NCBI GenBank assembly: GCA_037388705.1
Contig: JARRJY010000002.1
Location: 164 to 64,163 of the forward strand
DNA from: Gammaproteobacteria bacterium
GTDB lineage: Bacteria > Pseudomonadota > Gammaproteobacteria > UBA6429 > Thiohalophilaceae
DNA: 64,000 bases
Reading direction: 5' to 3'
Numbering within the stretch: the first letter of the stretch is position 1; every line of letters starts with the position of its first letter. Positions 17,062-59,942 of this stretch are shown in pieces. A program made the position numbers and the translations under genes. A model generated the notes under the pieces. That model was given only the letters and a program-made list of their open reading frames with translations, made no database searches and had not been told where the DNA came from.

Positions 17062-17802
17062 TTGTTTAACAACAAGAATTCAGTAATTCGAATGGATAGC
17101 GAAGCGGCTATGGATCAACAAAAAATTATCGACAAAATCTGCAAGTGTTTGCGTTTATCGGAGTCATGTAATCCCAACGAGGCAGCATCAGCGCTGCGTC
17201 AGGCCCACGGTCTGATGAAAAAATACGGTGTTACCGCTGACCAGATTCTTGCCAAAGATGTCAGTGAAGCCGCAGTAGAAAGTATCAGTCGCTATAACCC
17301 GCCTTACTGGGTGCTGGCATTATCCAATATTGTTGCCCAGGCCTTTGAGTGCCGGGTTTTTGTTTCCCGCCGATATGGGCGTCGTCCTGAGTTTCGATTT
17401 ATCGGTATGGCGATATCGCCTGAAATAGCCAGTTATACTTTTAATGTCCTGTATCGCCAGCTCAAACAGGCAAGACGTGACTTTAGCTATGATCTGAATA
17501 TTGAGGATCGCGCCGAGAAAGACCGCCGCACAGATGTATTTGCTCAGGCCTGGTTATTCAGGGTAGCCCACCTGGTTTCGGAATTTGCCAGTACGCCTGT
17601 AGCGAAAGAGAAAATCGATAGTTATATCAAGGAGAATTACGGCGATATCCCGGAACTGGCCGAAAAACCAGCTAATGCAGAAGCAAAAGACTACGAGGAC
17701 ATACTTTCAGGAATGAAAGCCGCCAATGGTGTTGCCCTGTATCGAGCCATGAACAGTGCTTTTCCTACTCAATACCTGGCGCGTAAGACGGCTCAGGCAT
17801 AA
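17062..17802 (+). CDS. DUF2786-like protein (family common in phage/plasmid/island contexts)
   Basis: IIDKICKCLRLSESCNPNEAASALRQAHGLMKKYGV matches my memory of the DUF2786 N-terminal motif. Both flanks are AT-rich intergenic DNA. The start is uncertain (17062 or 17092). Confidence 0.5.
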   Translation: MFNNKNSVIRMDSEAAMDQQKIIDKICKCLRLSESCNPNEAASALRQAHGLMKKYGVTADQILAKDVSEAAVESISRYNPPYWVLALSNIVAQAFECRVFVSRRYGRRPEFRFIGMAISPEIASYTFNVLYRQLKQARRDFSYDLNIEDRAEKDRRTDVFAQAWLFRVAHLVSEFASTPVAKEKIDSYIKENYGDIPELAEKPANAEAKDYEDILSGMKAANGVALYRAMNSAFPTQYLARKTAQA

Positions 17803-17890
17803 AAAGCACATAAATTTCTCTATTTTCGCTATGCTTAGTGAAAAGATATACTAATATAGTATACATATCTTAATTAGGGTTAAGGGGACA

Positions 17891-18823
17891 ATGTCTGCCG
17901 TATTGAGGGTCAAGACAGGGGGTGGTGTTCGAAAAATTCCCTGTAAAGCCGTTTTGACTTTGGGGCGCGATAAAAATAGCGATATCGTGCTCAAGGATCT
18001 GATGGCATCGCGCAACCACGCCATGATCAGGCGCCTTGGTAAGAACGATTATTATCTTATTGACTCAGGCAGCTCCAATGGCAGCTACGTTAACAAGCAA
18101 CGTGTTTCTGCCCCCAAACTTCTGAAAGCCGGCGATGTCATCAGCATTGGTAACATCGAGTTAACATTCGAACAAATCAAACAAAACGACGATACCATGG
18201 ATACCTGGTCCATGCAGGAGACCATGATTTCCGATACCCCGGTGATCAAACAAATTACTGTTCTGGTAGCCGATATTCGTGGATTTACCACGTTATCCGA
18301 ACAGGTCAATATCCGTATTCTTACCAAAATGATGAACAGCTGGTTTCACCAGGTGAGTAATATTATTTTTGAAAACCAGGGCGTGGTGGACAAGTTCATC
18401 GGTGATTGTGTTTTTGCGCGCTGGGAAACAGATATCGGTGAAAATGTGACTGCTAAACAGGCATTGAATGCCGCTGTGCTGATTCATAAAGTTACCGAAG
18501 ATATCAATAAAGCTTTTCCCGAAGTAGATAATATTAGTATCGGTGTTGGCATTAACACTGGTGCAGCCTCAATGGGTATTGGTATTGATAATACTGCATT
18601 GGGTGATGCCGTAAATACGGCATTCCGCCTTGAAAATGCTACCAAGGTTCTGAAAAAAGACATTGTCATGAGTGAATCCACTTACAAACATTTGCCGGAA
18701 TATATCTGGCAGAACTGTAAGCAACATATTCGTGTCAAAGGCAAGCGTGACACTTTGCGTATCTGTGGCCTGAGCTTTAAACAGGCTGAGGACCTGGTAC
18801 AGGAATTATGTCAGGCCAGCTAG
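17891..18823 (+). CDS. FHA domain-containing class III adenylate/guanylate cyclase
   Basis: FHA: LGRDKNSDIVL...SRNHAMI...YYLIDSGSSNGSYVN. Cyclase: VLVADIRGFTTLSE, KFIGDCVFA, GDAVNTAFRLE. Both metal-binding Asp residues and the Asn/Arg pair are present. Confidence 0.85.
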   Translation: MSAVLRVKTGGGVRKIPCKAVLTLGRDKNSDIVLKDLMASRNHAMIRRLGKNDYYLIDSGSSNGSYVNKQRVSAPKLLKAGDVISIGNIELTFEQIKQNDDTMDTWSMQETMISDTPVIKQITVLVADIRGFTTLSEQVNIRILTKMMNSWFHQVSNIIFENQGVVDKFIGDCVFARWETDIGENVTAKQALNAAVLIHKVTEDINKAFPEVDNISIGVGINTGAASMGIGIDNTALGDAVNTAFRLENATKVLKKDIVMSESTYKHLPEYIWQNCKQHIRVKGKRDTLRICGLSFKQAEDLVQELCQAS

Positions 18824-18826
18824 TAA

Positions 18827-19222
18827 TTACGAGATAAAAGGTTTCACATCTTTTAACAGTTCTTCCATTTCGAGTTTAATGTCATTTATCAGACGTGTTG
18901 CTGTTTCAACATGATTCCAGTCATCATGCCCCATGTCACTGGATTTCATAATAGCTTGTGACCTGGCAACCAGCTCAGCATCATCATCATCAATAAACTG
19001 TGCAAGGAAGGTATAGGCATGTACCAGACTTTCGCAAATGCTTTTATCCTGTTCACCAATTTCCCATAGTAATAATTGCAACGATGATTTAAGTTGATCT
19101 TTATCACAGGGGAGTAATGACTGAGGATGTGCATAGGATGTGGCATCCAGATGGGATAAAATTTGACCATATTGCTGCACAAGATGTTGTGCTTCTGCTA
19201 GCTCTTTTTGCTTATCAGTCAT
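18827..19222 (-). CDS. hypothetical acidic protein (131 aa)
   Basis: ORF with plausible coding character, convergent with the cyclase gene and 3 nt from it. I recognise no family. Confidence 0.45.
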   Translation of the reverse strand: MTDKQKELAEAQHLVQQYGQILSHLDATSYAHPQSLLPCDKDQLKSSLQLLLWEIGEQDKSICESLVHAYTFLAQFIDDDDAELVARSQAIMKSSDMGHDDWNHVETATRLINDIKLEMEELLKDVKPFIS

Positions 19223-19289
19223 AAAATGATAATAACACCAACAAATAATCCGGCAACACTATATTTAATAAGAAAGTATCATCCAGAAC

Positions 19290-19982
19290 ATGAACAATAA
19301 TACATCAGCTGATTTTTTTATCGACCTTATTGTAATAGCGGGCGTGCCCTTGTTATTTCTTCTGGTCGCATTTGTATTACAGTGGCCAGTCATAAAACTT
19401 AACCTGTCTGAATATCGTCTTGCCAGGACCATAAAAAAATTTGGCAAGGAAACTATGCATGATGTGATGTTACCAGATAGCCTTGGAGGTTATACATATA
19501 TCGATTACCTTGCACTGACGGCAAATGCAATTGTGATTTTGTACCTGAAACGTTACCAGGGTGTCATCTTTGCCGGTGAAAAAATTGATGAGTGGACACA
19601 GGTTATCAATAACCATAGTTATCGTTTCCCAAATCCGCTGCAAAAAATGGAACTGGATATCATGGCCATAAATGTACTGGTAAAAGATGTAAAGGTCGAT
19701 GGTAAGGTGGTTTTTACCAGGGGAAGTGAATTCCCCAAGGGAAAGCCTGACAAGGTAGTATTGATCAGTGAACTGGAAAATAATTTAAAAAATTATAAGG
19801 CAGAAGAAATTTCACCATTATTACAAACAGCATGGAAACGCTTACAGGAAAAGACCGAACCATGTAGCAAGGAATTCATACGGACAATGAGTGATAATAC
19901 GACGGTATCAAGTCACGGTTGGCTGGCATCAATACTCGTTGTGTCTGCAGCCGCCTGGATTGGATGGTATTTAGCCATGTAA
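19290..19982 (+). CDS. NERD (nuclease-related) domain protein with N- and C-terminal TM segments
   Basis: GGYTYIDYLALTANAIVILYLKRYQGVIFAGEKIDEWTQV...FPNPLQK resembles the NERD core. Both termini are hydrophobic. Confidence 0.6.
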   Translation: MNNNTSADFFIDLIVIAGVPLLFLLVAFVLQWPVIKLNLSEYRLARTIKKFGKETMHDVMLPDSLGGYTYIDYLALTANAIVILYLKRYQGVIFAGEKIDEWTQVINNHSYRFPNPLQKMELDIMAINVLVKDVKVDGKVVFTRGSEFPKGKPDKVVLISELENNLKNYKAEEISPLLQTAWKRLQEKTEPCSKEFIRTMSDNTTVSSHGWLASILVVSAAAWIGWYLAM

Positions 19983-24071: not shown

Positions 24072-25418
24072 ATGCAGGCGAAGGAAAACGTTGCAAAGGA
24101 AATTGAAGGTGAGCTGGATACACAAGCAACGACTGCAAAGCAGCACGCACATTCAGTAGACGAACTTGAAAAAGCACTAATTAAAACCCACAAGGCGCAA
24201 GAGTATATGGTGTCAGGGAAAGCTGGTTCGTTAGACAGGTGGCTGGTAAAGACCATGCTGGAATTTGCCGGTAACCCTCCCCTTAGTGTCAGGATATGGG
24301 ATGGGTCCATCATTGAGATTAATTCTGAGCAACATAAGTCGCTATTAACGATTAATGATCGTGCTGCGATGATTAAACTGATACTCGAGCCGGAATTATT
24401 TTTTGGTGATCTATATAGTAGCGGGCGAATTGAATACGATGGTGACTTGGTAAAACTTTGTGAATCCATTTATACCAGCATAGATGAACCCCGTGAAAAT
24501 CATTTATGGTCAAAAATAACCAGGTGGTTAAGTAACCGAAGAATAGTTAATTCGTTATCAGCATCACGCGATAATATTTATCATCATTATGATATCAGCA
24601 ATGACTTTTACAAGTTATGGCTTGATACAGAAGCCATGCAGTATACCTGTGCCTATTTTCCGGATCCTGAATTGACTATTGAACAGGCCCAGGTTGCCAA
24701 GCTACATCACGTTTGCCGAAAATTACAATTGCAACCAGGCGACAAAGTCGTTGAAGCCGGCTGTGGCTGGGGTGGCCTGGCTCGCTTCATGGCAAAACAT
24801 TACGGTGTAACTGTCAAGGCTTATAATATTTCACATGCCCAGGTCCAATATGCCCGTCAGCAGGCTGAAAAAGAAGGTTTAAGCGATAAGGTTGAATACA
24901 TCGAGGATGACTACCGGAATATCAAGGGTAAATTTGATGTATTTGTCTCGGTAGGTATGCTGGAGCATGTCGGAGACAAGCACTACATGGTTCTGGGTGA
25001 TGTTATCCAGCGCTGTTTGAAAAAAGATGGCCGAGGCCTGATCCATAGCATTGGTCGTGTTTCACCTAAACCTATGAATGCCTGGATTGAGCGTCGAATA
25101 TTCCCGGGTGCCTATCCTCCCTCCCTCCAGGAAATGATGAATATTTTTGAGCCTCATAATCTTGAAGAACAGGATGTAGAAAACCTGCGTTTACATTATG
25201 CAAAGACCCTGGAACACTGGCTATCACGTTTTGAATATAACATCGATACCATTAAGGAAATGCTGGGTGAAGAGTTTATAAGGACCTGGCGTTTATACCT
25301 GGCTGGTTCCATCGCGGCTTTTACGACCGGTGAACTGCAGCTGTTCCAGATACTGTTTAACCGGCAGGGGTATAACAAGCTACCTTGGTCGCGTGCATAC
25401 ATGTACGCCGGTAACTAA
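24072..25418 (+). CDS. cyclopropane-fatty-acyl-phospholipid synthase family methyltransferase (N-terminally extended ORF; start uncertain)
   Basis: HYDISNDFYKLWLD..MQYTCAYF, VVEAGCGWGGLARFMA, MLEHVG and IFPGAYPPS are Cfa/mycolic-acid-MT family motifs. Confidence 0.8.
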   Translation: MQAKENVAKEIEGELDTQATTAKQHAHSVDELEKALIKTHKAQEYMVSGKAGSLDRWLVKTMLEFAGNPPLSVRIWDGSIIEINSEQHKSLLTINDRAAMIKLILEPELFFGDLYSSGRIEYDGDLVKLCESIYTSIDEPRENHLWSKITRWLSNRRIVNSLSASRDNIYHHYDISNDFYKLWLDTEAMQYTCAYFPDPELTIEQAQVAKLHHVCRKLQLQPGDKVVEAGCGWGGLARFMAKHYGVTVKAYNISHAQVQYARQQAEKEGLSDKVEYIEDDYRNIKGKFDVFVSVGMLEHVGDKHYMVLGDVIQRCLKKDGRGLIHSIGRVSPKPMNAWIERRIFPGAYPPSLQEMMNIFEPHNLEEQDVENLRLHYAKTLEHWLSRFEYNIDTIKEMLGEEFIRTWRLYLAGSIAAFTTGELQLFQILFNRQGYNKLPWSRAYMYAGN

Positions 25419-25420
25419 TC

Positions 25421-26555
25421 GTGCAAGAAGTAGATATCCTGATAATAGGGTGGGCCGGCAGGTTCCACCCTGGCGTGGGCATTACGTGATAGTTCCTATA
25501 AGATCATGATCATGGATAAAGCTCCGTTTCCGCGCAACAAAGTTTGTGCAGGCTGGATTACGCCAGCCGTGGTGAATGAATTACAGATTGATTTACATGA
25601 CTACCAGAGAGAGCGAGAACTACAGGCTATAAAAGGATTTCGTATCGGTTATCTCGATAACGAGACCGGTGGCCAGGAAACTGAAACCTGTTATGACGAA
25701 ACTGTCAGTTACGGGATAAGACGAGTCGAGTTTGATGAATACCTGTTAAAACGGTGCGGTGCAGAACTTTTGTTGAACAACAAGGTAAAAACAATTGAAA
25801 AGTTCAGCGATTACTGGCTAGTTAATAATGAAATCAAGGCGGGGGTATTGATTGGCGCGGGAGGACACTTTTGCCCGGTAGCCAGGGAACTGGGACATAA
25901 AACAGGTAAAAATGAAGTTGCCGTTGCAGCCCAGGAAGTTGAGTTCGAAATGGATAGCCAGCAACAGGCTTCATGTAATGTTTCTGAAACAACCCCGGTA
26001 CTGTATTTTTGTCATGACCTGCAGGGTTATGGCTGGGTGTTTCGTAAAGGTAATTACCTGAACATCGGCCTTGGACGAGAAGATAATTATCAACTTGGGG
26101 AACAGGTCAAAACCTTTTGTCAGTTCCTGAAACAACAAAAGATTATTGAATTCGACATCGAGCACCGATTCCAGGGGCATGCATACCTGTTATATAACCA
26201 CGCGCAACGTGAGCTGGTTGCCGAACGGGCATTACTGATTGGTGATGCTGCAGGCCTGGCTTATCCGCAGAGTGGTGAAGGCATCCGACCGGCAGTTGAA
26301 TCAGCATTGTTTGCGGCGCAAACTTTAAAAGATGCCCGGTATGATTTCAGTAAATCAAAATTAATGACATACCAGGATAAAATGGAACAACATTTTGGTA
26401 AACGGCAACCTTTAGCAGGAATCATGGAACGTATGCCAGAAAATATTCGCATAAAGTTAGCCTGCCAGTTAATTACACGTACATGGTTTGCCAGGCATGT
26501 CGTAATGGATCGCTGGTTCCTGCATCAGCACCAGGCACCTGTCAGTATTCAATGA
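25421..26555 (+). pseudogene. geranylgeranyl-reductase-family FAD-dependent oxidoreductase, frameshifted inside the GxGxxG motif
   Basis: GTG 25421 gives VQEVDILIIG and then stops at 25487. The frame of ORF 25506-26555, read back to 25449, gives GGPAGSTLAWALRDSSYKIMIMDKAPFPRNKVCAGWIT. The two pieces join at the GGG-T-GGG tract at 25448-25454. Confidence 0.6.
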
Positions 26556-26994: not shown

Positions 26995-27552
26995 TTATTC
27001 GGAATTTACTGCTTCACGATTATTCTTGTGAATATCCATTGTGTGGACAGGGAAGTGTCCGGATTTACGATCTTCCAGGAAATATTTCAATGTATGGTGA
27101 ATAGTACGAAAGGAAATTTCATTCCAGGGAATATCTTTTTCTTCAAACAAGTCGACTTCAAGACTTTCCGTACCAGGATAAAAATCCAGGTCCAGTAGTC
27201 GAGCCCGGTACATGATATAAACCTGGTTTACATGTGTCAGGCTAAATACGGTATACAAGCCTTCAAGCTTAAGGTTTGCATTGGCTTCTTCCCGTGATTC
27301 ACGCAGTGCCCCCTGTTCAAGGGTTTCCGCATTTTCCATAAAACCGGCAGGCAGTGTCCATTTTCCATAACGCGGCTCAATGGCGCGTTTGCATAACAGG
27401 ATTTTATCTTCCCAGACGGGAAGGGCACCGACAATGATTTTTGGGTTTTGATAGTGAATGGCATCACAATGATCGCAGACATGGCGAGGCATATTATCAC
27501 CATCAGGTACCCGGACGGTGACTGGTTTGCCGCAAGTACTACAGAATTTCAT
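26995..27552 (-). CDS. NUDIX hydrolase with an N-terminal zinc ribbon
   Basis: CSTCG...CDHCD zinc ribbon, plus the Nudix box GFMENAETLEQGALRESREEANA. Confidence 0.85.
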   Translation of the reverse strand: MKFCSTCGKPVTVRVPDGDNMPRHVCDHCDAIHYQNPKIIVGALPVWEDKILLCKRAIEPRYGKWTLPAGFMENAETLEQGALRESREEANANLKLEGLYTVFSLTHVNQVYIMYRARLLDLDFYPGTESLEVDLFEEKDIPWNEISFRTIHHTLKYFLEDRKSGHFPVHTMDIHKNNREAVNSE

Positions 27553-27557
27553 GGGCG

Positions 27558-27842
27558 TTATTTTTTTGCAGCTTGCGGAACAAAACCATTGGGTAACTGG
27601 CCGAATTCACCTTCATTGAACAGGAAACCCACCATGTGTTGCTCAATAACCTCGACACTGGCAGGATCTGCAGTACTCAGGCGGTTTTCATTGATGATCA
27701 TCGTCAGACGTTCTAACCATTTGTTCCAGCCTTCGATGGAAATATTTTCAAGAATACGCTCTCCCAGTTCACCAGGATAAGGCGCGATATCCATTCCAGG
27801 GGCTTCTTTTTTCAGAACCTGACAAAAAACGACACGTGACAT
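27558..27842 (-). CDS. yggX: oxidative damage protection / Fe(2+)-trafficking protein YggX
   Basis: MSRVVFCQVLKKEAPGMD..PYPGELGERI...EGWNKWL...TMIINENRL matches the YggX family. Confidence 0.85.
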   Translation of the reverse strand: MSRVVFCQVLKKEAPGMDIAPYPGELGERILENISIEGWNKWLERLTMIINENRLSTADPASVEVIEQHMVGFLFNEGEFGQLPNGFVPQAAKK

Positions 27843-28001
27843 GTTGAGTACTCCATGTGACGACACTACTATATAACTATAGCTGCTCGTCAGCTTACAA
27901 ATGTGTTACAATTAACCAAGTAAAACACTTGGATTTAGCCGGTGTATTATCCGGAATTAACCAGGTAGGTTCAAGCCAGATATTTCAGGAGTTATGAGAC
28001 C

Positions 28002-28394
28002 ATGACACAGGCACAAACTGCAAGCTATAACCCGGCAATTGTTGAGGAAGAAATTAAACTCAGTGATACCGCGACACAGCAAATGGCTGTGTTAATGCAA
28101 AGCGCGGATGATGGTATTGAAGGTGTGCGAGTTTTTGTCACCGGTGGTGGTTGTGGCGGCATGAGTTACGGCATGACATTTACTGACACGATTACTGATA
28201 AAGACAAGGTAATGGAAGGGGACGGGTACAAGCTCATTGTCGATGCATTTGCATTAAGTTACCTGAAAGGTTGTGATATTGATTTCGTGGAACAGGGTTT
28301 GAACGCGTCCTTCGTATTTAACAATGTATTCCAGGCCGTTGGTGGTAGTGGCGGTTGTAGTGCATGTGGTGCCTCCGGTGGCGGGTGTGCCTGA
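28002..28394 (+). CDS. HesB/IscA-family Fe-S cluster insertion-like protein with an atypical Cys/Gly-rich C-terminal tail
   Basis: VFVTGGGCGGMSYGMTF and LIVD...YL.G..IDF are the IscA/ErpA fold motifs. The usual C-terminal CGCG is replaced by GGSGGCSACGASGGGCA. Confidence 0.8.
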   Translation: MTQAQTASYNPAIVEEEIKLSDTATQQMAVLMQSADDGIEGVRVFVTGGGCGGMSYGMTFTDTITDKDKVMEGDGYKLIVDAFALSYLKGCDIDFVEQGLNASFVFNNVFQAVGGSGGCSACGASGGGCA

Positions 28395-29678
28395 TTGCCC
28401 AGGGCCCCATTTACATCAGAACAGGCGACTAAAACACGTCGCGTTTTAGTTATTGCGCCTCACAGTAGTTATCGAACCGCGGCCTATATCCAGGCCGCGC
28501 AATCTCTTAAAAGCGAAGTCCTGATTGCCTCTGAAGGCGAATACTCGATAGTTAGTGATTTTGCCAGGGGGTTGCATATCCACTTTGCCGAACCTGATAT
28601 CGCGTTTCAAACCATTATCGAGGCAGCGAAAGATAAACCTTTTAGTGGAGTGATTGGCACGGATGACAGTAGCCTTGAACTGGCAGCACGCGTCGCACGT
28701 TATTTTAATCTTCCGCATAACACACCGTTATCAGTCCGGCTGGCTGGGCGTAAAGACCTGGCAAGAAAGTGTTTGCAGCAAGCCCGGGTTGCAATACCTG
28801 AATTTCGGGAAATGGATTTAACCAAAGACGTAAAGGTACAAGTAAATGGTCTTGAGTATCCAGTTGTAGTGAAACCGGTTGCGCTGTCAGGTAGCCGGGG
28901 CGTTATTCGTGCAAATGACTATCAAGAATTATTAGCTGCCACTACAAGAATAAAGAAATTACTGGATAAGGAACAACAACTGGATATTGAGTTGCAGCAA
29001 AAGATATTGGTTGAACAATATATCCCCGGTGATGAAGTTGCGGTTGAAGGTATGTTACGCCAGGGGCAGTTAGATATTCTGACAATATTCGATAAGCCTG
29101 ATCCACTTGAAGGGCCGTTTTTTGAAGAGTCTTATTACATTACACCTTCAAGACATTCGGCAAAAATTCAGCAGCAGTTACGTGCAGTCGTTCAGCAAGC
29201 ATGCAAAGCCTACAGTTTAAAGGAAGGTCCGGTTCATGCTGAATGTCGCATAAATAATCAGGGTGTATGGATACTTGAGGTAGCAGCACGAACCATTGGC
29301 GGTTTGTGTGCGCGGTTGTTAACGTTTGGCACAGGACATACCCTGGAACAGTTAGTGCTGGCCCAGGCGATGGGAGAACCTTTAATAACCGAAGAGCAAC
29401 GTCCTGCCAGTGGCGTCTTGATGATCCCAATTACACAAGCAGGAATATTTAAACGAGTAGAGGGTTTGCTGGAAGCACAACGCGTTCCTGGTATTATCGA
29501 TATTGATATCCAGATTCGAGAAGGTTATGAACTGGTTCCATTGCCTGAAGGAGCCAGTTATTTAGGTTTTATATTTGCCTCGGCTGATACAGCCGAAAAA
29601 GTGGAAGCGGCGTTAAGAAAAGCACACGCCTGTTTAAAGATTGTCGTGGCGCCCATGTTTAAAGTTAATATTGCCTGA
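28395..29678 (+). CDS. ATP-grasp domain protein (amino-acid/carboxylate-amine ligase-like)
   Basis: TTG start directly abuts the hesB-like TGA. YPVVVKPVALSGSRGVIRAN, VEQYIPGDEVAVEG and GPVHAECRI...VWILEVAAR are ATP-grasp motifs. Confidence 0.75.
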   Translation: MPRAPFTSEQATKTRRVLVIAPHSSYRTAAYIQAAQSLKSEVLIASEGEYSIVSDFARGLHIHFAEPDIAFQTIIEAAKDKPFSGVIGTDDSSLELAARVARYFNLPHNTPLSVRLAGRKDLARKCLQQARVAIPEFREMDLTKDVKVQVNGLEYPVVVKPVALSGSRGVIRANDYQELLAATTRIKKLLDKEQQLDIELQQKILVEQYIPGDEVAVEGMLRQGQLDILTIFDKPDPLEGPFFEESYYITPSRHSAKIQQQLRAVVQQACKAYSLKEGPVHAECRINNQGVWILEVAARTIGGLCARLLTFGTGHTLEQLVLAQAMGEPLITEEQRPASGVLMIPITQAGIFKRVEGLLEAQRVPGIIDIDIQIREGYELVPLPEGASYLGFIFASADTAEKVEAALRKAHACLKIVVAPMFKVNIA

Positions 29679-29698
29679 GAAAATTTATTGAGTAAGTT

Positions 29699-30766
29699 AT
29701 GACTGAACAAGTAATTCCACAAAACCAGCAATACCAGTTACATGAAACCTGTTTGCAGGAGAAACTGGAGGATGGTACCACCCGCTGTAATCTCTGTTTA
29801 TGGCGATGTCGTTTGGTTCATGGGCAGCGTGGTTTTTGCCAGGCGCATGTGAATCGCCACGGTACTTTGTATAACCTTTCTTACGGTATTATTTCGGCCA
29901 TTGATATTGGTCCAATTGAAGATAAACCTGTTAAGCATTTCCAGCCCGGTACTAAAGCTATGTCCATTGGCAGTTACGGTTGTAATTTCCGTTGCCAGGG
30001 ATGTCATAACCTTGAAATTTCATGGGGTGTGGAAGCACTGGATGAGCTGGCTAAAGGCGAGTCCACTTCAGCCTACGTATCTCCTGAAGAAATGGTTGAA
30101 GCCGCTTTACGTCATAAGGTACAGGGGATTGCGTTTACCTATTCAGAACCGGCAGTCTGGCTGGAGTACGTACTGGATGTATCAAGATTGGCCAGGGAAA
30201 AGGGACTATATACGGTTTATGTATCCAACAGTTTTGTTACGGATGAAGCACTGGAGTTAATGGCACCCTACGTTGATGTTTTATGTTCAGATATAAAAAG
30301 CCTCGATGATGAGTTTTATCATGCTATTTGTCCCAAGGCGGATGTGAAACAGGTACTAAGCTCTATCAAAAAGGCCCAGCAGCTGGGGATCCATGTGGAA
30401 ACCCGTACCAATATCATCCCGGGGAAAAATGATGACATCAACATGATAAGCGATATCGCTGAATGGATTAAAGATAACCTGGGTGAAGAGAGTCCATGGC
30501 ATATCACCAAATTTTTTCCCGCCTTCCAGCTGTCTCATATTCCGGCAACACCTTCAGAAGTTTTGAGAGAAGCGTTTCTGGTTGCACAGTCAGTCGGACT
30601 TAAGAATGTTTACATGTATGATGATAAAGGTTGTGATTGTGCAACAGAGAACCTTCCGGTTGATGCCTACCTGGAAGGTAATCCCGACGATATACACCAG
30701 GTAAAGAAATGCTCGGCCAGTTGCTGTGGTGATGAAGGTATTCTGCTTAAAAAATATGAAAAGTAG
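29699..30766 (+). CDS. radical SAM enzyme, PflA-like / AmmeMemoRadiSam-type
   Basis: N-terminal CNLCLWRCRLVHGQRGFC, PIEDKPVKHFQPG, and CX3CX2C (GCNFRCQGC, nt 29981-30004). The C-terminus is Cys-rich (CDC...CSASCC). Confidence 0.8.
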   Translation: MTEQVIPQNQQYQLHETCLQEKLEDGTTRCNLCLWRCRLVHGQRGFCQAHVNRHGTLYNLSYGIISAIDIGPIEDKPVKHFQPGTKAMSIGSYGCNFRCQGCHNLEISWGVEALDELAKGESTSAYVSPEEMVEAALRHKVQGIAFTYSEPAVWLEYVLDVSRLAREKGLYTVYVSNSFVTDEALELMAPYVDVLCSDIKSLDDEFYHAICPKADVKQVLSSIKKAQQLGIHVETRTNIIPGKNDDINMISDIAEWIKDNLGEESPWHITKFFPAFQLSHIPATPSEVLREAFLVAQSVGLKNVYMYDDKGCDCATENLPVDAYLEGNPDDIHQVKKCSASCCGDEGILLKKYEK

Positions 30767-39218: not shown

Positions 39219-40202
39219 ATGGATACCGCTACCGTTCTGACAGAAAAAAGCGGCTATGAGCTGGTGAAATTTTTCTTCCTGTTAACGTTTGCCGCGGCTA
39301 TTCCAGCAATTATTTCCGGTGGTATTGCCGAACGCGCCAGGTTTTACCCGCAACTGGTCGCAACGTTTCTTATCGTGGCCCTTATTTACCCATTTTTTGA
39401 AGGCATGGCCTGGAAGGGCAATTTCGGCATGCAGGCCTGGATTGAAGCCAGTTTTGGTGCGCAGTTCCATGATTTTGCTGGGTCTGTTGTAGTCCATGCC
39501 ATGGGCGGCTGGCTGGCACTGGGGGCCGTCGTGTTACTGGGTGCGAGGCATGGTCGATATACCAAGGAGGGTAAAATCAGTGCAGCACACCCTCCTTCAA
39601 GTATTCCTTTCCTCGCGCTGGGTGCCTGGATCCTGACGGTAGGCTGGTTTGGTTTTAACGTCATGTCTGCACAGACTATTGATGCTATTAGCGGACTGGT
39701 TGCTGTTAATTCATTGATGGCCATGGTCGGTGGCATCCTCGCTGCCCTGCTGGTAGGTAAAAACGACCCGGGCTTTGTCCACAATGGTCCACTGGCCGGT
39801 CTGGTCGCCGTGTGTGCCGGTTCTGACATTATGCATCCCGCGGGTGCACTGGTGACCGGCGCGGTGGCTGGTGGCCTGTTTGTCTGGACCTTCACCCTCT
39901 GCCAGAACAAATGGAAAATTGACGATGTACTGGGCGTCTGGCCATTGCATGGTCTGTGCGGTGCCTGGGGGGGTGTTGCCGCGGGTATCTTCGGCAGCAC
40001 AGCGCTTGGTGGCCTGGGTGGCGTTACCTTCATGGCACAGCTGGCCGGTACTGTCATCGGCGTTAGTATTGCCCTGGCAGGCGGTTTTATTGTTTACGGT
40101 ATCATCAAGAAGCTGGTAGGTATTCGGCTCAGTCAGGAAGAGGAATACCAGGGTGCTGATCTTAGTATCCATAAAATCGCTTCTGAATCGGCGATTGATT
40201 AA
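39219..40202 (+). CDS. ammonium transporter (Amt family), lacking the N-terminal ~50-65 residues (TM1 region)
   Basis: DFAGSVVVHAMGGW, GWFGFN and VWPLHGLCGAWGG are Amt motifs. The frame is open only from 39141 (NFECKKVLSTIAYFFIGYGIAYGLGF-M...), which aligns with the KNVLS...GYSLAFG region after TM1 of E. coli AmtB. Confidence 0.7.
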   Translation: MDTATVLTEKSGYELVKFFFLLTFAAAIPAIISGGIAERARFYPQLVATFLIVALIYPFFEGMAWKGNFGMQAWIEASFGAQFHDFAGSVVVHAMGGWLALGAVVLLGARHGRYTKEGKISAAHPPSSIPFLALGAWILTVGWFGFNVMSAQTIDAISGLVAVNSLMAMVGGILAALLVGKNDPGFVHNGPLAGLVAVCAGSDIMHPAGALVTGAVAGGLFVWTFTLCQNKWKIDDVLGVWPLHGLCGAWGGVAAGIFGSTALGGLGGVTFMAQLAGTVIGVSIALAGGFIVYGIIKKLVGIRLSQEEEYQGADLSIHKIASESAID

Positions 40203-44387: not shown

Positions 44388-45293
44388 ATGAATGACGGAC
44401 GACCGAGCAGCACTACCGACAAATCAGCACGAAACTGGTTTGAAAAGGTAGTGCAATTTTTTCAGGCCAAACCTGAAGATCGTGAAGAGTTAATCCAGAC
44501 TTTACAGGATGCCCAGCAGAACAATCTGTTTGATGCTGATGCCATGGTAATGATGGAAGGTGTGCTGCAGGTTTCAGAAATGCAGGTACGCGATATCATG
44601 ATCCCCCGTTCACAAATGGTGGTTGTAGAAACAGATGCGACACCCGATGAAATCCTTTCAACAGTAGTCAGTTCTGCTCACTCACGTTTCCCCGCGGTTG
44701 GTGATAGCAAGGATGAGGTTGTTGGTCTTTTGCTGGCCAAGGACCTGTTGCCGTTTTTTCTGAAAGGGGATAAAGAACAGATCAACCTGCGCGATCTGTT
44801 GCGCCCGGTTGTTTTTATTCCTGAAAGCAAGCGTCTGAACGTGTTATTAAAAGAATTCCGTTCTAATCGTAATCATATGGCGATCGTTGTCGATGAGTAT
44901 GGTGGTGCTGCTGGCCTGGTAACGATAGAAGACGTACTGGAACAGATCGTTGGAGAAATAGAGGACGAGCATGACTTTGCCGATGATATTTATATTCTTG
45001 CCCATTCAGATATAAGGGCAACGATAAAGGCCATTACACCTATCGAAGACTTCAACGAGCATTTTGGAAGTAATTTCAGCGATGAAGAGTTTGATACCAT
45101 TGGTGGACTGGTAATGAATGCGCTGGGGCATATGCCCAAACGTGATGAAACAGTAACTATGGATGGTTTCCATTTTAAGGTACTGCGCGCCAGTAGTCGC
45201 CGCATTCACCTGTTGGAAGTCAATAAACTGGACCAGGAAAAAATCGACAAAAATAATAATGATGAACCTATGGAAAAGGTGGATGAAGCATGA
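44388..45293 (+). CDS. corC: CBS-pair + CorC_HlyC domain protein (magnesium/cobalt efflux-associated)
   Basis: [11 protein letters not shown]...[33 protein letters not shown]. Confidence 0.88.
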
Positions 45294-46748
45294 AGTTGCT
45301 TCATCCAGAAAACTAAAATACCTGCTAGCATTTATTTCCGGTGGGTTATTCCCTCTTGCTTTTGCCCCGGTTAATTTCTTTCCTTTAGCTTTTTTTCTTC
45401 CTGCCATTTTGTTTTATCTGTGGCGAAATACCACGGCCAGGCAGGCGGCAAAGATTGGTTTTTTCTTTGGGCTGGGTGAATTTGCTGTTGGTGTCTCGTG
45501 GGTATATGTTGCTATTCATGAATTTGGTCTGAGTTCAGTTGCTGTTGCGACATTATTAACTGGTCTTTTTGTGACCTTCCTGGCCTTGTTCATTGCCTTA
45601 CAGGGTTATATCAGCCAGTCACTGGTTAATCGTTATAGTAGTGGCCAATGGATGAGTTACCTTTTGATTTATCCGGCATGCTGGGTATTCATGGAGTGGG
45701 TCAGGGGCTGGTTCCTGACCGGTTTCCCCTGGTTAAACCTTGGATATAGCCAGATTGATACACCTATGGTGGGTTATGCTTCTGTGCTGGGGGTCTATGG
45801 TATCTCCTGGATTGTCGTGTTTATATCCGGCCTGATCCTGTTTTTATTTGAGCGGCCCAACAGCAAGATCCCTGTCATCATTTGCATTTTCCTGCTTTTT
45901 AGCCGTTAAAAGTAGCCCTGATACAGGGTAATATGCCGCAATATACCAAGTGGGATCCTGACGCGGTTGGGCAACGTATCGAACAGTATTCCCGCCTGAC
46001 AAGAATGCACTGGGATAATGATCTTATCATCTGGCCGGAAAACAGTATGACGGCATATTTTCATCAGCTGGATGAAAGCTTTTTACAACCATTTAAACAG
46101 GAAGCGATTGCCAATAACAGTGAATTGATAATCGGCATACCGTTTCTTAACCAGGAGACCTATCAGTATTACAGCAGTTTTATGACGATAGGCGCACAAC
46201 AGACGTTTTATCACAAAACGCACCTGGTACCTTTCGGTGAATACCTGCCACTGGATTTTCTGTTACGTGATCTGATCAACTTTTTTTCCATGCCGATGTC
46301 TGATTTTAGCCGTGGTGACTGGATACAACCGTTATTGCAGGTGAAAGGTCAGAAAGTTGCAGCAACGATTTGTTACGAGGATGCGTTTGGTGAGGAGCTG
46401 ATTCGTTATTTACCTGAAGCCAGTTTACTGGTGAATGGTAGCAACAATGCATGGTATGGAAATTCATTCGCGCCACATCAGCATTTACAGATTTCAAGAA
46501 TGCGTGCAGTAGAAACCGGTCGCGATTTAATGCGCGCTACAACAAATGGTATATCTGCACTGGTCAATCATAAAGGTAAAATCCAGGTGCGTTCCCGGCA
46601 GTTTGAAAGTGACGTGGTTACTGGCATAGTACAACCACGAAGCGGGGCCACCCCGTATGTTAACTGGGGTAATTACCCTGTGTTAGCCGGTCTTCTCTTG
46701 TGTTTGCTATTCGTGATTGTTCGCAACAGGTCACAACAAAACGATTAA
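45283..46748 (+). pseudogene. lnt: apolipoprotein N-acyltransferase, split by a single-nt frameshift near 45903
   Basis: The N-terminal TM half (45283-45909, ...GFPWLNLGYSQ...) and the CN-hydrolase half (frame open from 45903: PLKVALIQGNMPQYTKWDP...) lie in different frames. The permissible switch window is only about 45901-45907 (AGCCGTT). Confidence 0.75.
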
Positions 46749-56250: not shown

Positions 56251-59200
56251 ATGACTAAGCAGTATAAACACATCGATAAACTGATTAAATGGTTGTGGTA
56301 CTTACTCGCGGCCAGTATCCTTTTTTCTGCTGTTATTATTTCCCTGATTCGTTTTGCGTTAACTGAGGTCGAGAGTTATCGCGAAAGAGTTGAGGAACTG
56401 GTAAGTGGTGCTATTAAACACCAGGTTTATATCGAATCTCTGGATGCGAGGCTGGTAGGGCTAATGCCAACCCTGGTACTTGAAGGAGTACGGGTACTGG
56501 ATGCAAAAGGGCAAAAGGAGATACTGAGAGTAAACAAAGCCAACGTTGGCGTTTCCCTTTACCAGTCAATAAAGCATCAAAAACTTATTCCCAGTGACAT
56601 TTTGATATCCGGCACCAAGCTGGCGTTAATCCGTTTGACGAATGGTCAGATTACCCTGCGCGGGTTTGACTTATCAACAGTTAGCAGTAAAGAAGTTAAA
56701 GGGAACAAAGAACTGACATCCTGGTTTTTTACCCAGTCATCGCTGGCCTTAAAGGAAAGTACTGTTATCTGGAAAGATTACAAGCGTCAACAAAAATCAA
56801 TCATTCTTAAAGATATTAACCTTGAAATAAATAATCGCGGTAAAACTCACGTTTTACATGGTTTCTTTTCTCCGGGTTCCCTGGGTAAAAACGTTGAACT
56901 GGCGATGGATATCAGTGGAGACCTGAGAGTGCCATCGCAATGGCAGGGTGATTTTTTTGTACAGGGAGATGAAATATACCTGGCTGAATGGGGGCAAAGA
57001 ATTCAGCATGAAAAAATTGAACTGACGGATGGTATCGCAGATTTCCAGTTGTGGGGCAGCCTCAATGAAAACGGGTTTAACAAAATTTACGGTGATGTTT
57101 CCGCGTACCAGTTAAATATCAAACATACAGAGAAGAAGCAATTAAAAGTAGGTTTGCTGGGTGGCTTATTTGAATTTGCTAAAAAAGATCAGGAATGGTA
57201 TCTGAATGTTGATCGTTTCCAGTATACCGGGACCGGGGGTATTTTGCCGGAGACAAACTTCAGTATTATTTCAAAAAACATTCCTGGTAAAGACAGGTCA
57301 AGCTATGATATCAGGGTTGGGAAGCTGGATCTGAAAGCAGCCAGTGAAATCTTAGTAAATAGTGGCCTGATAACTGGTGACCATGAATCCATGATCAGAG
57401 GCCTGGCACCATCAGGAAAAATTAACGCATTACGTGTTGCATCATCAGTTGATAATAATAACCAGAACAAGTTACTGGTACATGGTCAGTTAAGAAATAT
57501 TTACACGAAACAATATAAGAAAATTCCCGGTGTATCAAATATTTCGGGTGATCTATGGCTTGACCATAATCATGGCAAACTTGAATTATTTACAGAAGCA
57601 GGCAGTATTGATTTTGGTAAACTGTTCAGGGCACCAATCAAACTTGAAAAGGTAAACGGTGTTGTTAACTGGTGGAAATACCAGGATGGCTGGCAAGTTA
57701 CATCAACAGAATTACAGGCAGAAAATAATGAAGTGACGACATTAAATAATTTGTCACTTTATTTCCCGGCTAATGGTCCGACGTACATGGACCTGTATTC
57801 ATCATTTGCAGGCAGTGCACAATACAAGTCAAATTATTTACCTGTCGCAATTATGAAAAAGCCGCTGATCAACTGGCTGGATCAAAGCATTGTCTCCGGA
57901 GTTATTTCTCATGGCGGGCTGGTCTACCGGGGACGTTTTGCTGACTTTCCGTTCCGCAAACCACGGGGGCAGTTCCTGGTACAGCTTTATACTAATAACC
58001 TGGAGTTGAGTTATCAGAAAGGCTGGCCCGTTATCAGGGATGCCGACTTTGATGCCAGCTTTGATAGTAAAAGTATAGAAGTAGATTTGCACCTGGCTCG
58101 TCTTTTCACCAGTGCCGTAACAGATACGAAAGTTAGAATTAATGACTATCGGAACCCCATCGTTGATGTCACCGGCAAAGTTACCGGAAACATGGCGGAT
58201 GTCGTCAGCTTTGTTGTTAACAGCCCGTTAAAGATATCAAAGGAATTACTCGATGTTCGTTATGAAGGAAGAGCAAAAACAGATGTTGACCTGCATATCC
58301 CTTTACGTAAAGGGCAGAGTATCGGGTATACGGGTAATGTCTCCATAGACAAAGGGAACATCCAGTTAATAGGTGATTCAGTCAGCCTGGCAAATATCAA
58401 GGGAAACGTAGCGTTTTCAAATACTGGTTTTGCCAGCAAGAACCTGACAGCAGATATTTTTGATAGAACATCAGCTCTTAATATATATAGCCAGCAAACC
58501 AGCACCGGCAACAAGACTTACCTTGCGACAAGTGGCCAAACTGATATTCAGAAACTGCTTAAGAGTTTTTCCATTCCCGCTTATAAGCATAGTAGCGGAA
58601 ACCTGAACTGGCAGGCATTAGTGGATTTCTCGGATGACAGGGAAAAAGTGCCTGTGCTGGTTGTTCATAGTGACATGTCAGGCGTGTCACTTGATATGCC
58701 TTACCCGCTTAAAAAGAATGCTTCCGAAGAAAAAAATATGAGTCTGAAGGCATTCTTCAAAGGTAAAGGGAATACCGATCTATATATTGAGTATGCGGAT
58801 GCAGTTTCATTATCTACGCGCCTGGTAAAAAACAAGACAGCTCTTCATATAGAACGTGGACATGTTCATTTTGCCGGTGGTGAGGCAGTACTCCCTAAGC
58901 GCAAGCGATTATACGTATCTGGCAGCCTGGACCAGTTTTATCCCAGCCGCTGGGTTAAACATATCAATCAGTATAGCGATACCGGCAACCACAAGAATTT
59001 TAGCCTTCCAGTTCAGTTAGATATGAATCGACTCAGTATTGGTATTGATGTAGAGAAGGAGAAAAAAGACGTTGCTATAAAGCCCCGTGATTTTCCAGTC
59101 ATAAAAGGGGTAATCAAAGACCTGAAATTTGATGGGATGCCTTTAGGAAAGTTGAGTATTGATATGATTCATCATAAAGGTGATATGCAGCTGAACAGGT

Positions 59201-59942
59201 TGAATATTCACTCACCTGATATGGAGTTTAATTCGTCTGGCCGCTGGGAATATTCCAATAGAAAGCACAGCTCAAGAATGAATGTAAGTCTGAAAAGTGA
59301 TGACTATACCTGGGTAAACTGTTTAAACGACTCGGTCTGTCAGCGATCATTAATAATGGTAAATCGGATATAAAAGGCTCAATACACTGGGAAGGTACAC
59401 CTTTTGCATTCTCACTGGCCAGGTTGAATGGCAACCTCAAGATATATATTCAGGATGGTTCGATTGCTGATGTTGATCCCGGTGCCGGTCGGGTGGTGGG
59501 ATTACTAAGTTTGTCAGAACTCCCGCGCCGGTTAATGCTTGATTTCAGTGACATGTTTAAAAAAGGCATGGTGTTTGATGAAATCAAAGGGGATGTCTCA
59601 CTGGTTAATGGTGATGCCTTTACGAAAGCTATACACGTTGAAAGCTCTTTGGCCGATGTCAAACTTGAAGGCCGCACAGGGCTGGTGAAACGAGACTATG
59701 ATCAGCTGGTATCCGTAGTGCCCAAGGTTGGCGATACCTTGCCAGTTGCCAGTGGTGTGTTATTTGGTTCTCAAATTGGTGCAATAGTACTGTTGTTCGA
59801 GAAACTGATGGGTAAGGAAATTGAAAAAGCCACGGAAAGGAAATATAAAGTTACTGGTAGCTGGGAAAAACCAATAATCAAGCGAATTGATATTCCAGCT
59901 GAAGAAGCCAGGCCTGTAGATAGTGGTCTTGGTGATGAGTAA
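56251..59942 (+). pseudogene. yhdP: YhdP-family (AsmA-like, TIGR02099-type) large envelope protein, frameshifted near 59304-59313
   Basis: ORFs 56251-59373 and 59424-59942 belong to one protein. The second frame reads back to 59304 as LYLGKLFKRLGLSAIINNGKSDIKGSIHWEGTPFAFSLARLNGNLKIYIQDGSIADVDPGAGRVVGLLSL... Confidence 0.75.

Follow-up and report, generated by a model that had tools for sequence, protein, structure and literature searches.

A HesB-like carrier with a Cys/Gly-rich tail is encoded together with an L-amino-acid-ligase-type ATP-grasp enzyme beside yggX in marine and sediment Gammaproteobacteria

We analysed a stretch of 64,000 nucleotides from a gammaproteobacterial contig (the window), in which three genes packed head to tail encode a HesB/IscA-like protein, an ATP-grasp ligase, and a radical S-adenosylmethionine (SAM) enzyme. 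The comparison with related loci revealed that the conserved unit is a pair rather than this trio, formed by the ligase gene and by hesB, whose product ends in a Cys/Gly-rich tail. The common anchor of this pair is yggX, which encodes an Fe(2+)-trafficking and oxidative-damage protection protein, while the radical SAM gene is a separate yggX-associated gene, a facultative neighbour that joins the operon in the lineage of the window. We propose that these genes could constitute a conserved iron-sulfur (Fe-S) homeostasis module of marine and sediment Gammaproteobacteria, in which a carrier and a ligase that acts on it are encoded beside yggX, with the radical SAM enzyme as a likely client; we give this reading a probability of roughly 40%. 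That the module serves Fe-S trafficking is, taken by itself, probable. The tail signature, the carrier-ligase pairing, the anchoring to yggX, and the extension of the radical SAM subfamily are new; the superfamily of each protein was already known.

Conservation of the gene pair beside yggX

The hesB-like gene (28002-28394, + strand) encodes a protein of 130 aa, the ATP-grasp gene (28395-29678, + strand) one of 427 aa, and the radical SAM gene (29699-30766, + strand) one of 355 aa. The TGA codon of hesB (28392-28394) directly abuts the TTG start of the ATP-grasp open reading frame (ORF), and the gap between this ORF and that of the radical SAM enzyme is 20 nt. Upstream of them, yggX (27558-27866, − strand; PF04362, 103.6 bits; NF003817, 104.5 bits against a cutoff of 74) is divergent from hesB. 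The positions of the ORFs, their tight packing, and the abutment of the stop and start codons were confirmed, as they had been described in an earlier examination of the DNA letters (the sequence-only reading), which interpreted the three genes as a coupled trio.

The conservation of this arrangement was evaluated in 98 loci anchored on ATP-grasp homologues, 18 of them on genome contigs and 80 on metagenome contigs; the neighbour counts take only the loci with enough flanking sequence. Of the 81 testable loci, 74 (91%) have the tailed hesB gene immediately upstream of the ATP-grasp gene, and in 49 of 59 (83%) the distance from the ATP-grasp gene to yggX is no more than 1 kb. The radical SAM gene was present within the same distance in 20 of 60 loci (33%), and anywhere nearby in 11 of the 25 loci having at least 5 kb on both flanks (44%). 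When the lookups on long contigs were anchored on HesB, the ligase gene was found next door, downstream, in 4/4 cases; in the HesB-anchored P0223, the ligase gene is still adjacent even though the tail has no third Cys. In the four contigs anchored on radical SAM enzymes ~75-77% identical to that of the window, yggX adjoins the radical SAM gene in every case; two of these contigs carry the full block, and in the other two the gene is next to mutY-yggX, and neither hesB nor a ligase gene was found within 6 kb. From the neighbour counts and both types of lookups, we conclude that the conserved unit is the tailed hesB plus the ligase gene. The coupling put forward in the sequence-only reading thus holds for the carrier and the ligase, but does not extend to the radical SAM enzyme, whose membership is not obligatory.

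Different arrangements of these genes were found. In arrangement A, which is that of the window, a leftward yggX is followed by hesB, the ATP-grasp gene, and the radical SAM gene, all rightward; in arrangement B, the rightward hesB and ATP-grasp genes face a leftward yggX, beyond which lies the radical SAM gene, also leftward; in arrangements C and D, the pair has yggX on one or the other side and the radical SAM gene is absent. At least four rearrangements, which changed the side and strand of yggX, the radical SAM gene, and the flanking genes, have left hesB and the ligase gene next to each other. This persistence bears on the possibility that the genes share no function and that their proximity is merely synteny inherited around yggX in one gammaproteobacterial radiation. 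In line with it, all the collected loci come from related Gammaproteobacteria, and long syntenic blocks, from cfa to fabB, are found in the clade of the window. However, the ligases across the collected loci are 43-76% identical to that of the window and the outer flanking genes are wholly different, so inherited synteny alone fails to explain the persistence of the pair; the flanks change completely (HemJ, TlpA-like, PtsP, argC) among loci with ligases as low as 43-50% identical. We consider this explanation very improbable.

The intergenic gaps between hesB and the ATP-grasp gene are short, and the stop and start codons abut in several lineages. In the window, the two genes share the reading frame and are separated by a single in-frame TGA, which could have reflected read-through, a selenocysteine codon, or a fusion. 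These options were excluded because only 33 of 89 pairs are in the same frame, approximately the chance level, and the stop codons are mixed (TGA 38, TAA 35, TAG 16); the shared frame in the window is, therefore, due to chance only.

A few loci depart from the common pattern. In L002 and L039 (Acidithiobacillales SM1_46), a 105-aa ORF that is not hesB precedes the ligase gene, and in L087 a 191-aa protein is encoded in the place of hesB, with yggX and the radical SAM gene still downstream. The contig of L010 (CAXMNG010000190.1), in which a typical gammaproteobacterial hesB-grasp-yggX block appears in a metagenome-assembled genome of Salibacteraceae (Bacteroidota), is probably mis-binned. In 22 loci of arrangement C, which has no radical SAM gene, yggX adjoins the gene for a membrane protein of ~140 aa (e.g., L049 6626-7048) that we take by eye from its sequence to be HemJ-like; other recurring neighbours are a TlpA-like thioredoxin, in 16 loci, and a DUF4126-like membrane protein, in 11. 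These three, as well as PtsP and argC, were considered as members of the system and discarded, as they look like ordinary synteny. In a literature search, we found no publication linking the hesB, ligase, yggX, and radical SAM genes, and no paper dealing with an ATP-grasp enzyme together with HesB, or with YggX together with an ATP-grasp enzyme.

The tailed carrier and its ligase partner

The families that the sequence-only reading had named for these proteins (PF01521, ATP-grasp_4, Radical_SAM, and TIGR04337) were all matched in profile searches. The HesB-like protein scored above the values for PF01521 (44.8 bits vs. 26.3) and TIGR00049 (79.7 bits against a cutoff of 58.8), and below the equivalog cutoffs of ErpA (77.5 vs. 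117), IscA (72.7 vs. 150.6), and SufA (68 vs. 136.2). The IscA/ErpA-type motif GGGCGGMSYGMTF is present in this protein, and the first-Cys motif GGC[SGA]G was found in 205 of 209 HesB-like sequences; the nearest solved structures are those of Aquifex IscA, HI1723, and E. coli IscA and SufA. The C-terminal arm, GGSGGCSACGASGGGCA (28341-28391, + strand), is noncanonical, as had been noticed before, and it is conserved in the 123 unique tails that we gathered from homologues and loci. A CxxC motif is present in 122 of these tails, where it stands in place of the canonical CGC pair, four residues further from the last beta-strand. A third Cys occurs in 111 (90%), being the second-to-last residue in 94 of the 111 and lying six residues past the CxxC in 76. 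The tails consist mainly of Gly (45%), Ala (16%), Cys (14%), and Ser (11%), which together represent 86% of the residues; the eight commonest residues make up 97% of the composition and include neither Asp nor Glu, and Lys amounts to ~1%. Tails are alike with or without an adjacent radical SAM gene.

In three loci from Cycloclasticus and Piscirickettsiaceae (L006, L008, and L017), a canonical ErpA ending in CGCGSSFAA is encoded ~6 kb from the tailed gene. Since both proteins coexist in the same loci, the tailed one is a distinct paralogue, and the alternative that it is plain ErpA, or an ordinary ErpA/IscA orthologue with a variant tail, was ruled out. The tail is a conserved feature that defines the subfamily.

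The tailed carrier shares with ErpA (ATC-I) and with IscA and SufA (ATC-II) the fold family (PF01521, TIGR00049), the first-Cys motif, and a Cys pair past the last beta-strand. In contrast to them, it has CxxC instead of CGC, a Gly-rich extension with an extra Cys, and a ligase as partner. PMC2682760 divides the A-type carriers into three classes, ATC-I to ATC-III, and PMC7144353 into seven subfamilies; text searches of these two sources returned no mention of the CxxC variant. According to the former, the only target-dedicated class that has been recognised is the nif ATC-III (NifIscA, the HesB of nif clusters), which sets a precedent: a paralogous carrier that serves one client and is retained among the genes of that client (PMC2682760). 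Unlike ATC-III, the carrier of the window is not in a nif context, its tail is different, and its partner is a ligase. With the usual first Cys, the CxxC, and usually an extra second-to-last Cys on a Gly-rich arm, this protein could represent a fourth kind of A-type carrier, a classification that we propose tentatively on the basis of its sequence.

Other systems offer partial analogies. Cyanobacterial hesB adjoins hesA, which encodes an E1-like, ATP-dependent carboxylate-activating enzyme. DsrC and TusE carry sulfur on a flexible C-terminal arm with a second-to-last Cys, and Nfu binds a transferable cluster via a G-x-C-x-x-C motif; the tail combines a DsrC-like second-to-last Cys with an Nfu-like CxxC, a resemblance that involves sequence homology to neither protein. 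Many of the lineages that carry these genes, Cycloclasticus and Methylococcaceae among them, are not known to oxidise sulfur by the dsr route.

The partner of this carrier contains the domains PF13535 (ATP-grasp_4, 114.9 bits) and PF18603 (LAL_C2, 56.4 bits), an architecture common to BL00235, BacD/YwfE, and RizA. Its family profile matched BL00235 (3VOT) over the full length with E = 7.6e-62, and its AlphaFold model matched the same structure in Foldseek with a TM of 0.77; BacD and RizA came next in both cases. An exhaustive search recovered 588 cluster representatives related to the ligase at E ≤1e-30. The Mg-binding motif is present in the E-x-A-A-R variant (EVAARTIGG), which is typical of L-amino-acid ligases (Lals) such as BacD. 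In our own reading of the alignment, an invariant D90-D91 is found where BL00235 has F83-E84, beside the specificity residue P85. These sequence and fold matches indicate that the ATP-grasp enzyme is of the BL00235-like L-amino-acid ligase type.

The comparison made in the sequence-only reading with ATP-grasp enzymes of the RimK, LysX, or ribosomally synthesised and post-translationally modified peptide (RiPP) type was, in consequence, not sustained. The RimK family model (TIGR00768, rimK_fam) gave 23.3 bits against a cutoff of 143.4, the tail is without the Asp, Glu, Lys, or Thr employed by such enzymes, and it ends in a variable residue (A, G, S, Y, H, and others). Membership in the RimK/LysX protein-tail ligases was rejected for the low score and the variable tail ends, and membership in the RiPP ATP-grasps (microviridin/omega-ester) was also rejected, the tail having no Asp or Glu among its common residues and no RiPP ATP-grasp model appearing among the matches listed. 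RimK-S6 and LysX-LysW remain, as an analogy, the working model for the pair: there too, the gene for a small protein whose C-terminal tail is flexible adjoins that of an ATP-grasp ligase. The differences are that the ligase of the window belongs to another ATP-grasp subfamily, and that the tail ends in Ala or Gly and not in an acidic residue.

By analogy with LysW-LysX, for which no family membership is claimed, a direct action of the ligase on the carrier is favoured because obligate pairing and frequent translational coupling are typical of protein-tail ligases and their substrates. It is the gene pairing and the short or zero intergenic gaps that suggest an action on the tail itself, and we regard direct action as a somewhat doubtful proposal. 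Several observations weigh against it. The characterised enzymes closest to the ligase couple free amino acids, and in its longer relatives (39-44% identity) the fused domains are of the sulfotransferase, methyltransferase, or GNAT type, and never HesB, YggX, or a radical SAM enzyme. The last residue of the tail varies, and the 10% of the tails that have no third Cys nonetheless keep the ligase. Structure modelling with the HesB-like protein and the ligase fused in a single AlphaFold chain yielded a disordered tail: residues 110-141 (tail plus linker) had a predicted local distance difference test (pLDDT) value of ~30 and no docking signal was seen, a weak negative result, as the model was obtained with an unpaired alignment and monomer weights, and without contact or predicted aligned error output.

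An alternative to direct action is that the enzyme is an ordinary L-amino-acid ligase that makes a small molecule (a dipeptide or amide, possibly a thiol or a metal-binding compound), which would act as a cluster ligand or protectant, the tail not being a substrate. The best sequence and fold matches of the enzyme, BL00235, BacD, and RizA, are ligases of free amino acids, the domains fused to its 39-44% identical relatives are of the tailoring type, and both the absence of tail docking in the fused model and the variable C-terminal residue agree with this idea. On the other hand, the gene for a small-molecule enzyme would not usually adjoin that of one carrier paralogue in 91% of the loci, with stop and start codons that often abut, and none of the neighbouring genes encodes an exporter, a tailoring enzyme, or a resistance protein. 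Several known Lal products are antibiotic dipeptides, and such compounds misfit a housekeeping locus between yggX and lpxA. The known Lal products in Table 2 of PMC6920838 are dipeptides; in contrast to the Lals listed in that source, which make dipeptides from free amino acids, the ligase of the window belongs to a housekeeping-like subfamily that is paired with an Fe-S carrier. We regard the small-molecule alternative as rather unlikely, and, given the relatives of the ligase, as nearly as good as direct action on the carrier.

The radical SAM enzyme

The radical SAM enzyme matched TIGR04337 with 227.6 bits (cutoff 220), the match covering only profile positions 5-284 of 349, and its core fold is PflA-like, with 3CB8 as the best Foldseek match (TM 0.72). 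The motifs reported in the sequence-only reading were verified: an N-terminal Cys cluster (C30xxC33xxxC37...C47), the CX3CX2C motif (C95x3C99x2C102), and a C-terminal CSASCCG. Across 120 homologues, 14 Cys are invariant (C30, C33, C37, C47, C95, C99, C102, C196, C211, C312, C314, C338, C342, and C343), and the last five of them are located in a conserved extension, YDDKGCDC...KKCxxxCCG...LLKKYE, which is outside the part that matches TIGR04337. This enzyme is also the most conserved of the three proteins, with top matches 74-78% identical vs. ~60% for the ligase. Given so many invariant Cys, it is plausible that the enzyme is a heavy user of Fe-S delivery.

The domain scans of the window comprised 46 ORFs, 40 of them beyond the locus genes, with four long ORFs left out. 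As anticipated from the sequence, no AMMECR1 or Memo (MEMO1) partner was detected among the 46 ORFs, nor among the Pfam calls of the syntenic loci; a second Fe-S_biosyn domain was also absent from the 40 further ORFs. The enzyme has in common with the AmmeMemoRadiSam radical SAM proteins (TIGR04337) and the PflA activases the N-terminal four-Cys motif, CX3CX2C, and the PflA-like core. In contrast to the AmmeMemoRadiSam proteins, it has its own invariant extension and yggX as a conserved neighbour, with AMMECR1 and Memo not found in the scanned ORFs and the syntenic loci. The papers mentioning AmmeMemoRadiSam that the literature search returned merely list it among annotated genes. Membership in the glycyl-radical enzyme activases was rejected, as the scores of the activase models were far below their cutoffs (TIGR02493, 58.7 vs. 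231.75 bits; TIGR02494, 48.9 vs. 174.35 bits) and no PFL-like (glycyl-radical enzyme) gene was found among the scanned ORFs of the window.

These data are relevant to the role that the sequence-only reading gave to the trio, in which the Cys/Gly tail would be the substrate or carrier arm of both the ATP-grasp and the radical SAM enzymes, which would build a modified protein or peptide or a thio- or Fe-S cofactor. The contiguity of the three genes in the window and its nearer relatives fits with this idea, as do the high conservation of the radical SAM enzyme and the resemblance of its core to PflA, whose target is a glycine of a protein loop (3CB8 is a peptide-substrate complex), the tail being 45% Gly. 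However, the idea is weakened because the distribution of the radical SAM gene is facultative and separable: it is within 1 kb of the pair in only 20/60 loci and nearby in 11/25, it occurs at mutY-yggX away from hesB and the ligase gene in half of the radical SAM-anchored contigs, and the tails are the same with or without it. Moreover, the tail is without the side chains of the RimK/LysX or RiPP ATP-grasp systems, and the rimK_fam score (23 bits vs. 143) is low. Altogether, a facultative radical SAM enzyme, a ligase of the BL00235 type, the composition of the tail, and its disorder in the model leave an action of both enzymes on the tail as just possible, and we judge the three-enzyme scheme improbable. 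The same grade applies to its explicit form, in which the ligase would charge or extend the Cys/Gly arm of the carrier via a C-terminal acyl-phosphate and an amino acid or thiol, and the PflA-like radical SAM enzyme, where present, would modify Gly or Cys residues of the arm; if true, this would be a modified, ATP-driven Fe-S or sulfur carrier of a previously undescribed kind. Our preferred reading, in which the radical SAM enzyme is a client of the carrier and not a modifier of its tail, might be correct, and we keep it as a provisional assignment.

Genes for DNA glycosylases, namely MutY (HhH-GPD plus NUDIX_4) and a UDG-family protein, adjoin the radical SAM gene where it is separated from the pair or comes last in the operon (L106 7679-9027, L107 7078-8398, L109 7101-7733, and L111 7106-7741). 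MutY carries a [4Fe-4S] cluster. In both arrangements, yggX is flanked by a gene for a Nudix-fold protein, either the C-terminal domain of MutY or a stand-alone Zn-ribbon Nudix. In some lineages, the gene for SelO, a protein-AMPylating pseudokinase linked to redox homeostasis, directly follows the radical SAM gene (L021 10346-11821, L102 8742-9855, and L103 6070-6693; as two ORFs in L102). In one lineage, a PqqD-family gene, a 63-aa ORF, and a faint ScmC-like gene were found ~3 kb downstream of the radical SAM gene (L111 9730-11105); these genes may be an unrelated RiPP-type cluster.

The yggX-hesB intergenic region and other genes of the window

The region between yggX and hesB contains a perfect palindrome, CCAAGT-N5-ACTTGG (27916-27932), located between the two −10 boxes. 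The site that includes it, TTAACCAAGTAAAACACTTGGATTT (27912-27936), matches 17 of the 25 positions of ATASYYGACTRWWWYAGTCRRSTAT, the IscR type 1 consensus (PMC6599224, PMC6084964), and is located 65 nt before the ATG of hesB. It is preceded by an extended −10-like box, TGTTACAAT (27904-27912, + strand), which we read as a candidate element of the hesB operon and which was not called by a simple promoter scan, and it is followed by a sigma-70 promoter of yggX that the scan predicted (TTGAAC-17-GATAAT, 27946-27974, − strand). In the clade of the window, the order is an extended −10 (TGnTAnAAT, + strand), a palindrome of ~17 bp, and ATTATC, which is the reverse complement of the −10 of the predicted minus-strand yggX promoter; TATTATC is conserved across loci, and the complete layout (TGnTAnAAT-palindrome-TATTAT) was found in 14 of the 34 loci with divergent yggX and hesB.

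In related loci, the sites at this position scored up to 22/25. Scores of at least 19/25 were obtained in 8 of 88 hesB upstream regions, compared with 21 of 1760 shuffles (1.2%) and 7 of 1414 windows drawn at random in the same loci (0.5%), and the best-scoring sites occupy a common slot on the same strand, 43-70 nt ahead of the ATG. The consensus of 15 sites, AAAACCGAGTAAATTACTCGGGTAT, agrees with the published one in 21 of 25 positions by direct comparison. With the same scoring, the studied P. aeruginosa sites gave 14 for nfuA and 17 and 20 for sites A and B of iscR, and the best match upstream of E. coli erpA gave 20/25, at 64 nt. In the clade of the window, the promoter is similar to that of E. 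coli erpA, with an IscR type 1-like site that precedes the ATG by ~65 nt. The upstream regions of the canonical erpA genes in L006, L008, and L017, intended as a positive control, scored only 16-17/25 and were uninformative. Three results speak against an IscR operator: outside the clade of the window, 12 of 70 regions exceeded the 95th percentile of the control, with no fixed position (the matrix was built from the clade); the site of the window itself scores only 17/25; and an iscR gene was not found in the window. An operator common to every gene arrangement was rejected for the weak enrichment and the absence of a fixed position elsewhere. From the motif, an IscR-type co-regulation of yggX and the hesB operon is likely in the clade of the window. 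The Fe-S theme of the sequence-only reading, in which yggX was included, was strengthened by this IscR type 1-like site and by the 83% adjacency of yggX.

For the proposed Fe-S homeostasis module, we envisage that, when clusters are scarce or oxidised, an IscR-type repressor would leave the palindrome and both yggX(-nudix) and hesB-ligase(-radical SAM) would be induced. YggX would guard or supply iron, in keeping with the established function of its family. The tailed carrier would hold a cluster via Cys51 and the CxxC pair, perhaps together with the last Cys of the flexible arm, and would pass it to oxygen-sensitive clients; in the lineage of the window, the neighbouring radical SAM enzyme, whose 14 invariant Cys could bind several clusters, would be the likeliest of them. 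The adjacency of the genes and the stop-start abutment suggest that the ligase could act directly on the carrier, most likely by forming an acyl-phosphate and placing an amino acid onto the arm or the C-terminus, so as to tune or reset the carrier.

A-type carriers are central to the maturation of Fe-S proteins, and the division of labour among their paralogues is debated. The tailed protein would add a further widespread carrier class with a different cluster-binding signature, an obligate ATP-consuming partner, and a linkage to YggX, a protein with an unsettled mechanism. If the ligase does act on the carrier, this would be the first ATP-grasp step in Fe-S trafficking. In addition, the orphan AmmeMemoRadiSam-like radical SAM subfamily of Gammaproteobacteria gains a concrete context, that of yggX and Fe-S stress. 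The partners are small and soluble, so the system should be easy to test.

Regarding the other genes of the window, the one for a Zn-ribbon Nudix hydrolase (26995-27552, − strand; PF14803 and PF00293) is located 5 nt downstream of yggX, and both are probably co-transcribed; the yggX-nudix order is repeated in L019-L030, L102, L104, L109, L111, and L116. An Rfam scan of the window gave no matches. The lnt gene (apolipoprotein N-acyltransferase) is split in two frames (45163-45909 and 45933-46748), one with the LNT_N part and the other with the CN_hydrolase part, which reflects either a frameshift (pseudogene) or an assembly indel. Similarly, yhdP is apparently split between 56251-59373 (1040 aa) and 59424-59942 (172 aa), in differing frames; the 172-aa ORF covers only the final 150 positions of the YhdP profile, and the 1040-aa ORF was itself outside the scan. 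The two splits suggest indel errors in the source assembly. The ORF of an ammonium transporter (39219-40202) begins at profile position 77 of 399, its N-terminus being missing or in another frame. Between nadA and the gene for a 936-aa cNMP-binding/rhodanese protein, the ORFs with DUF2786/DUF7168, FHA-cyclase, and NERD domains (17062-19982) may be a small mobile or defence-like insertion. Upstream of nudix-yggX, the window contains the genes for a cyclopropane-fatty-acid-synthase-like methyltransferase (CMAS) and then an FAD-dependent oxidoreductase (24072-26555), which are kept in this position across the clade of the window (L020, L021, L102, L104, and L116).

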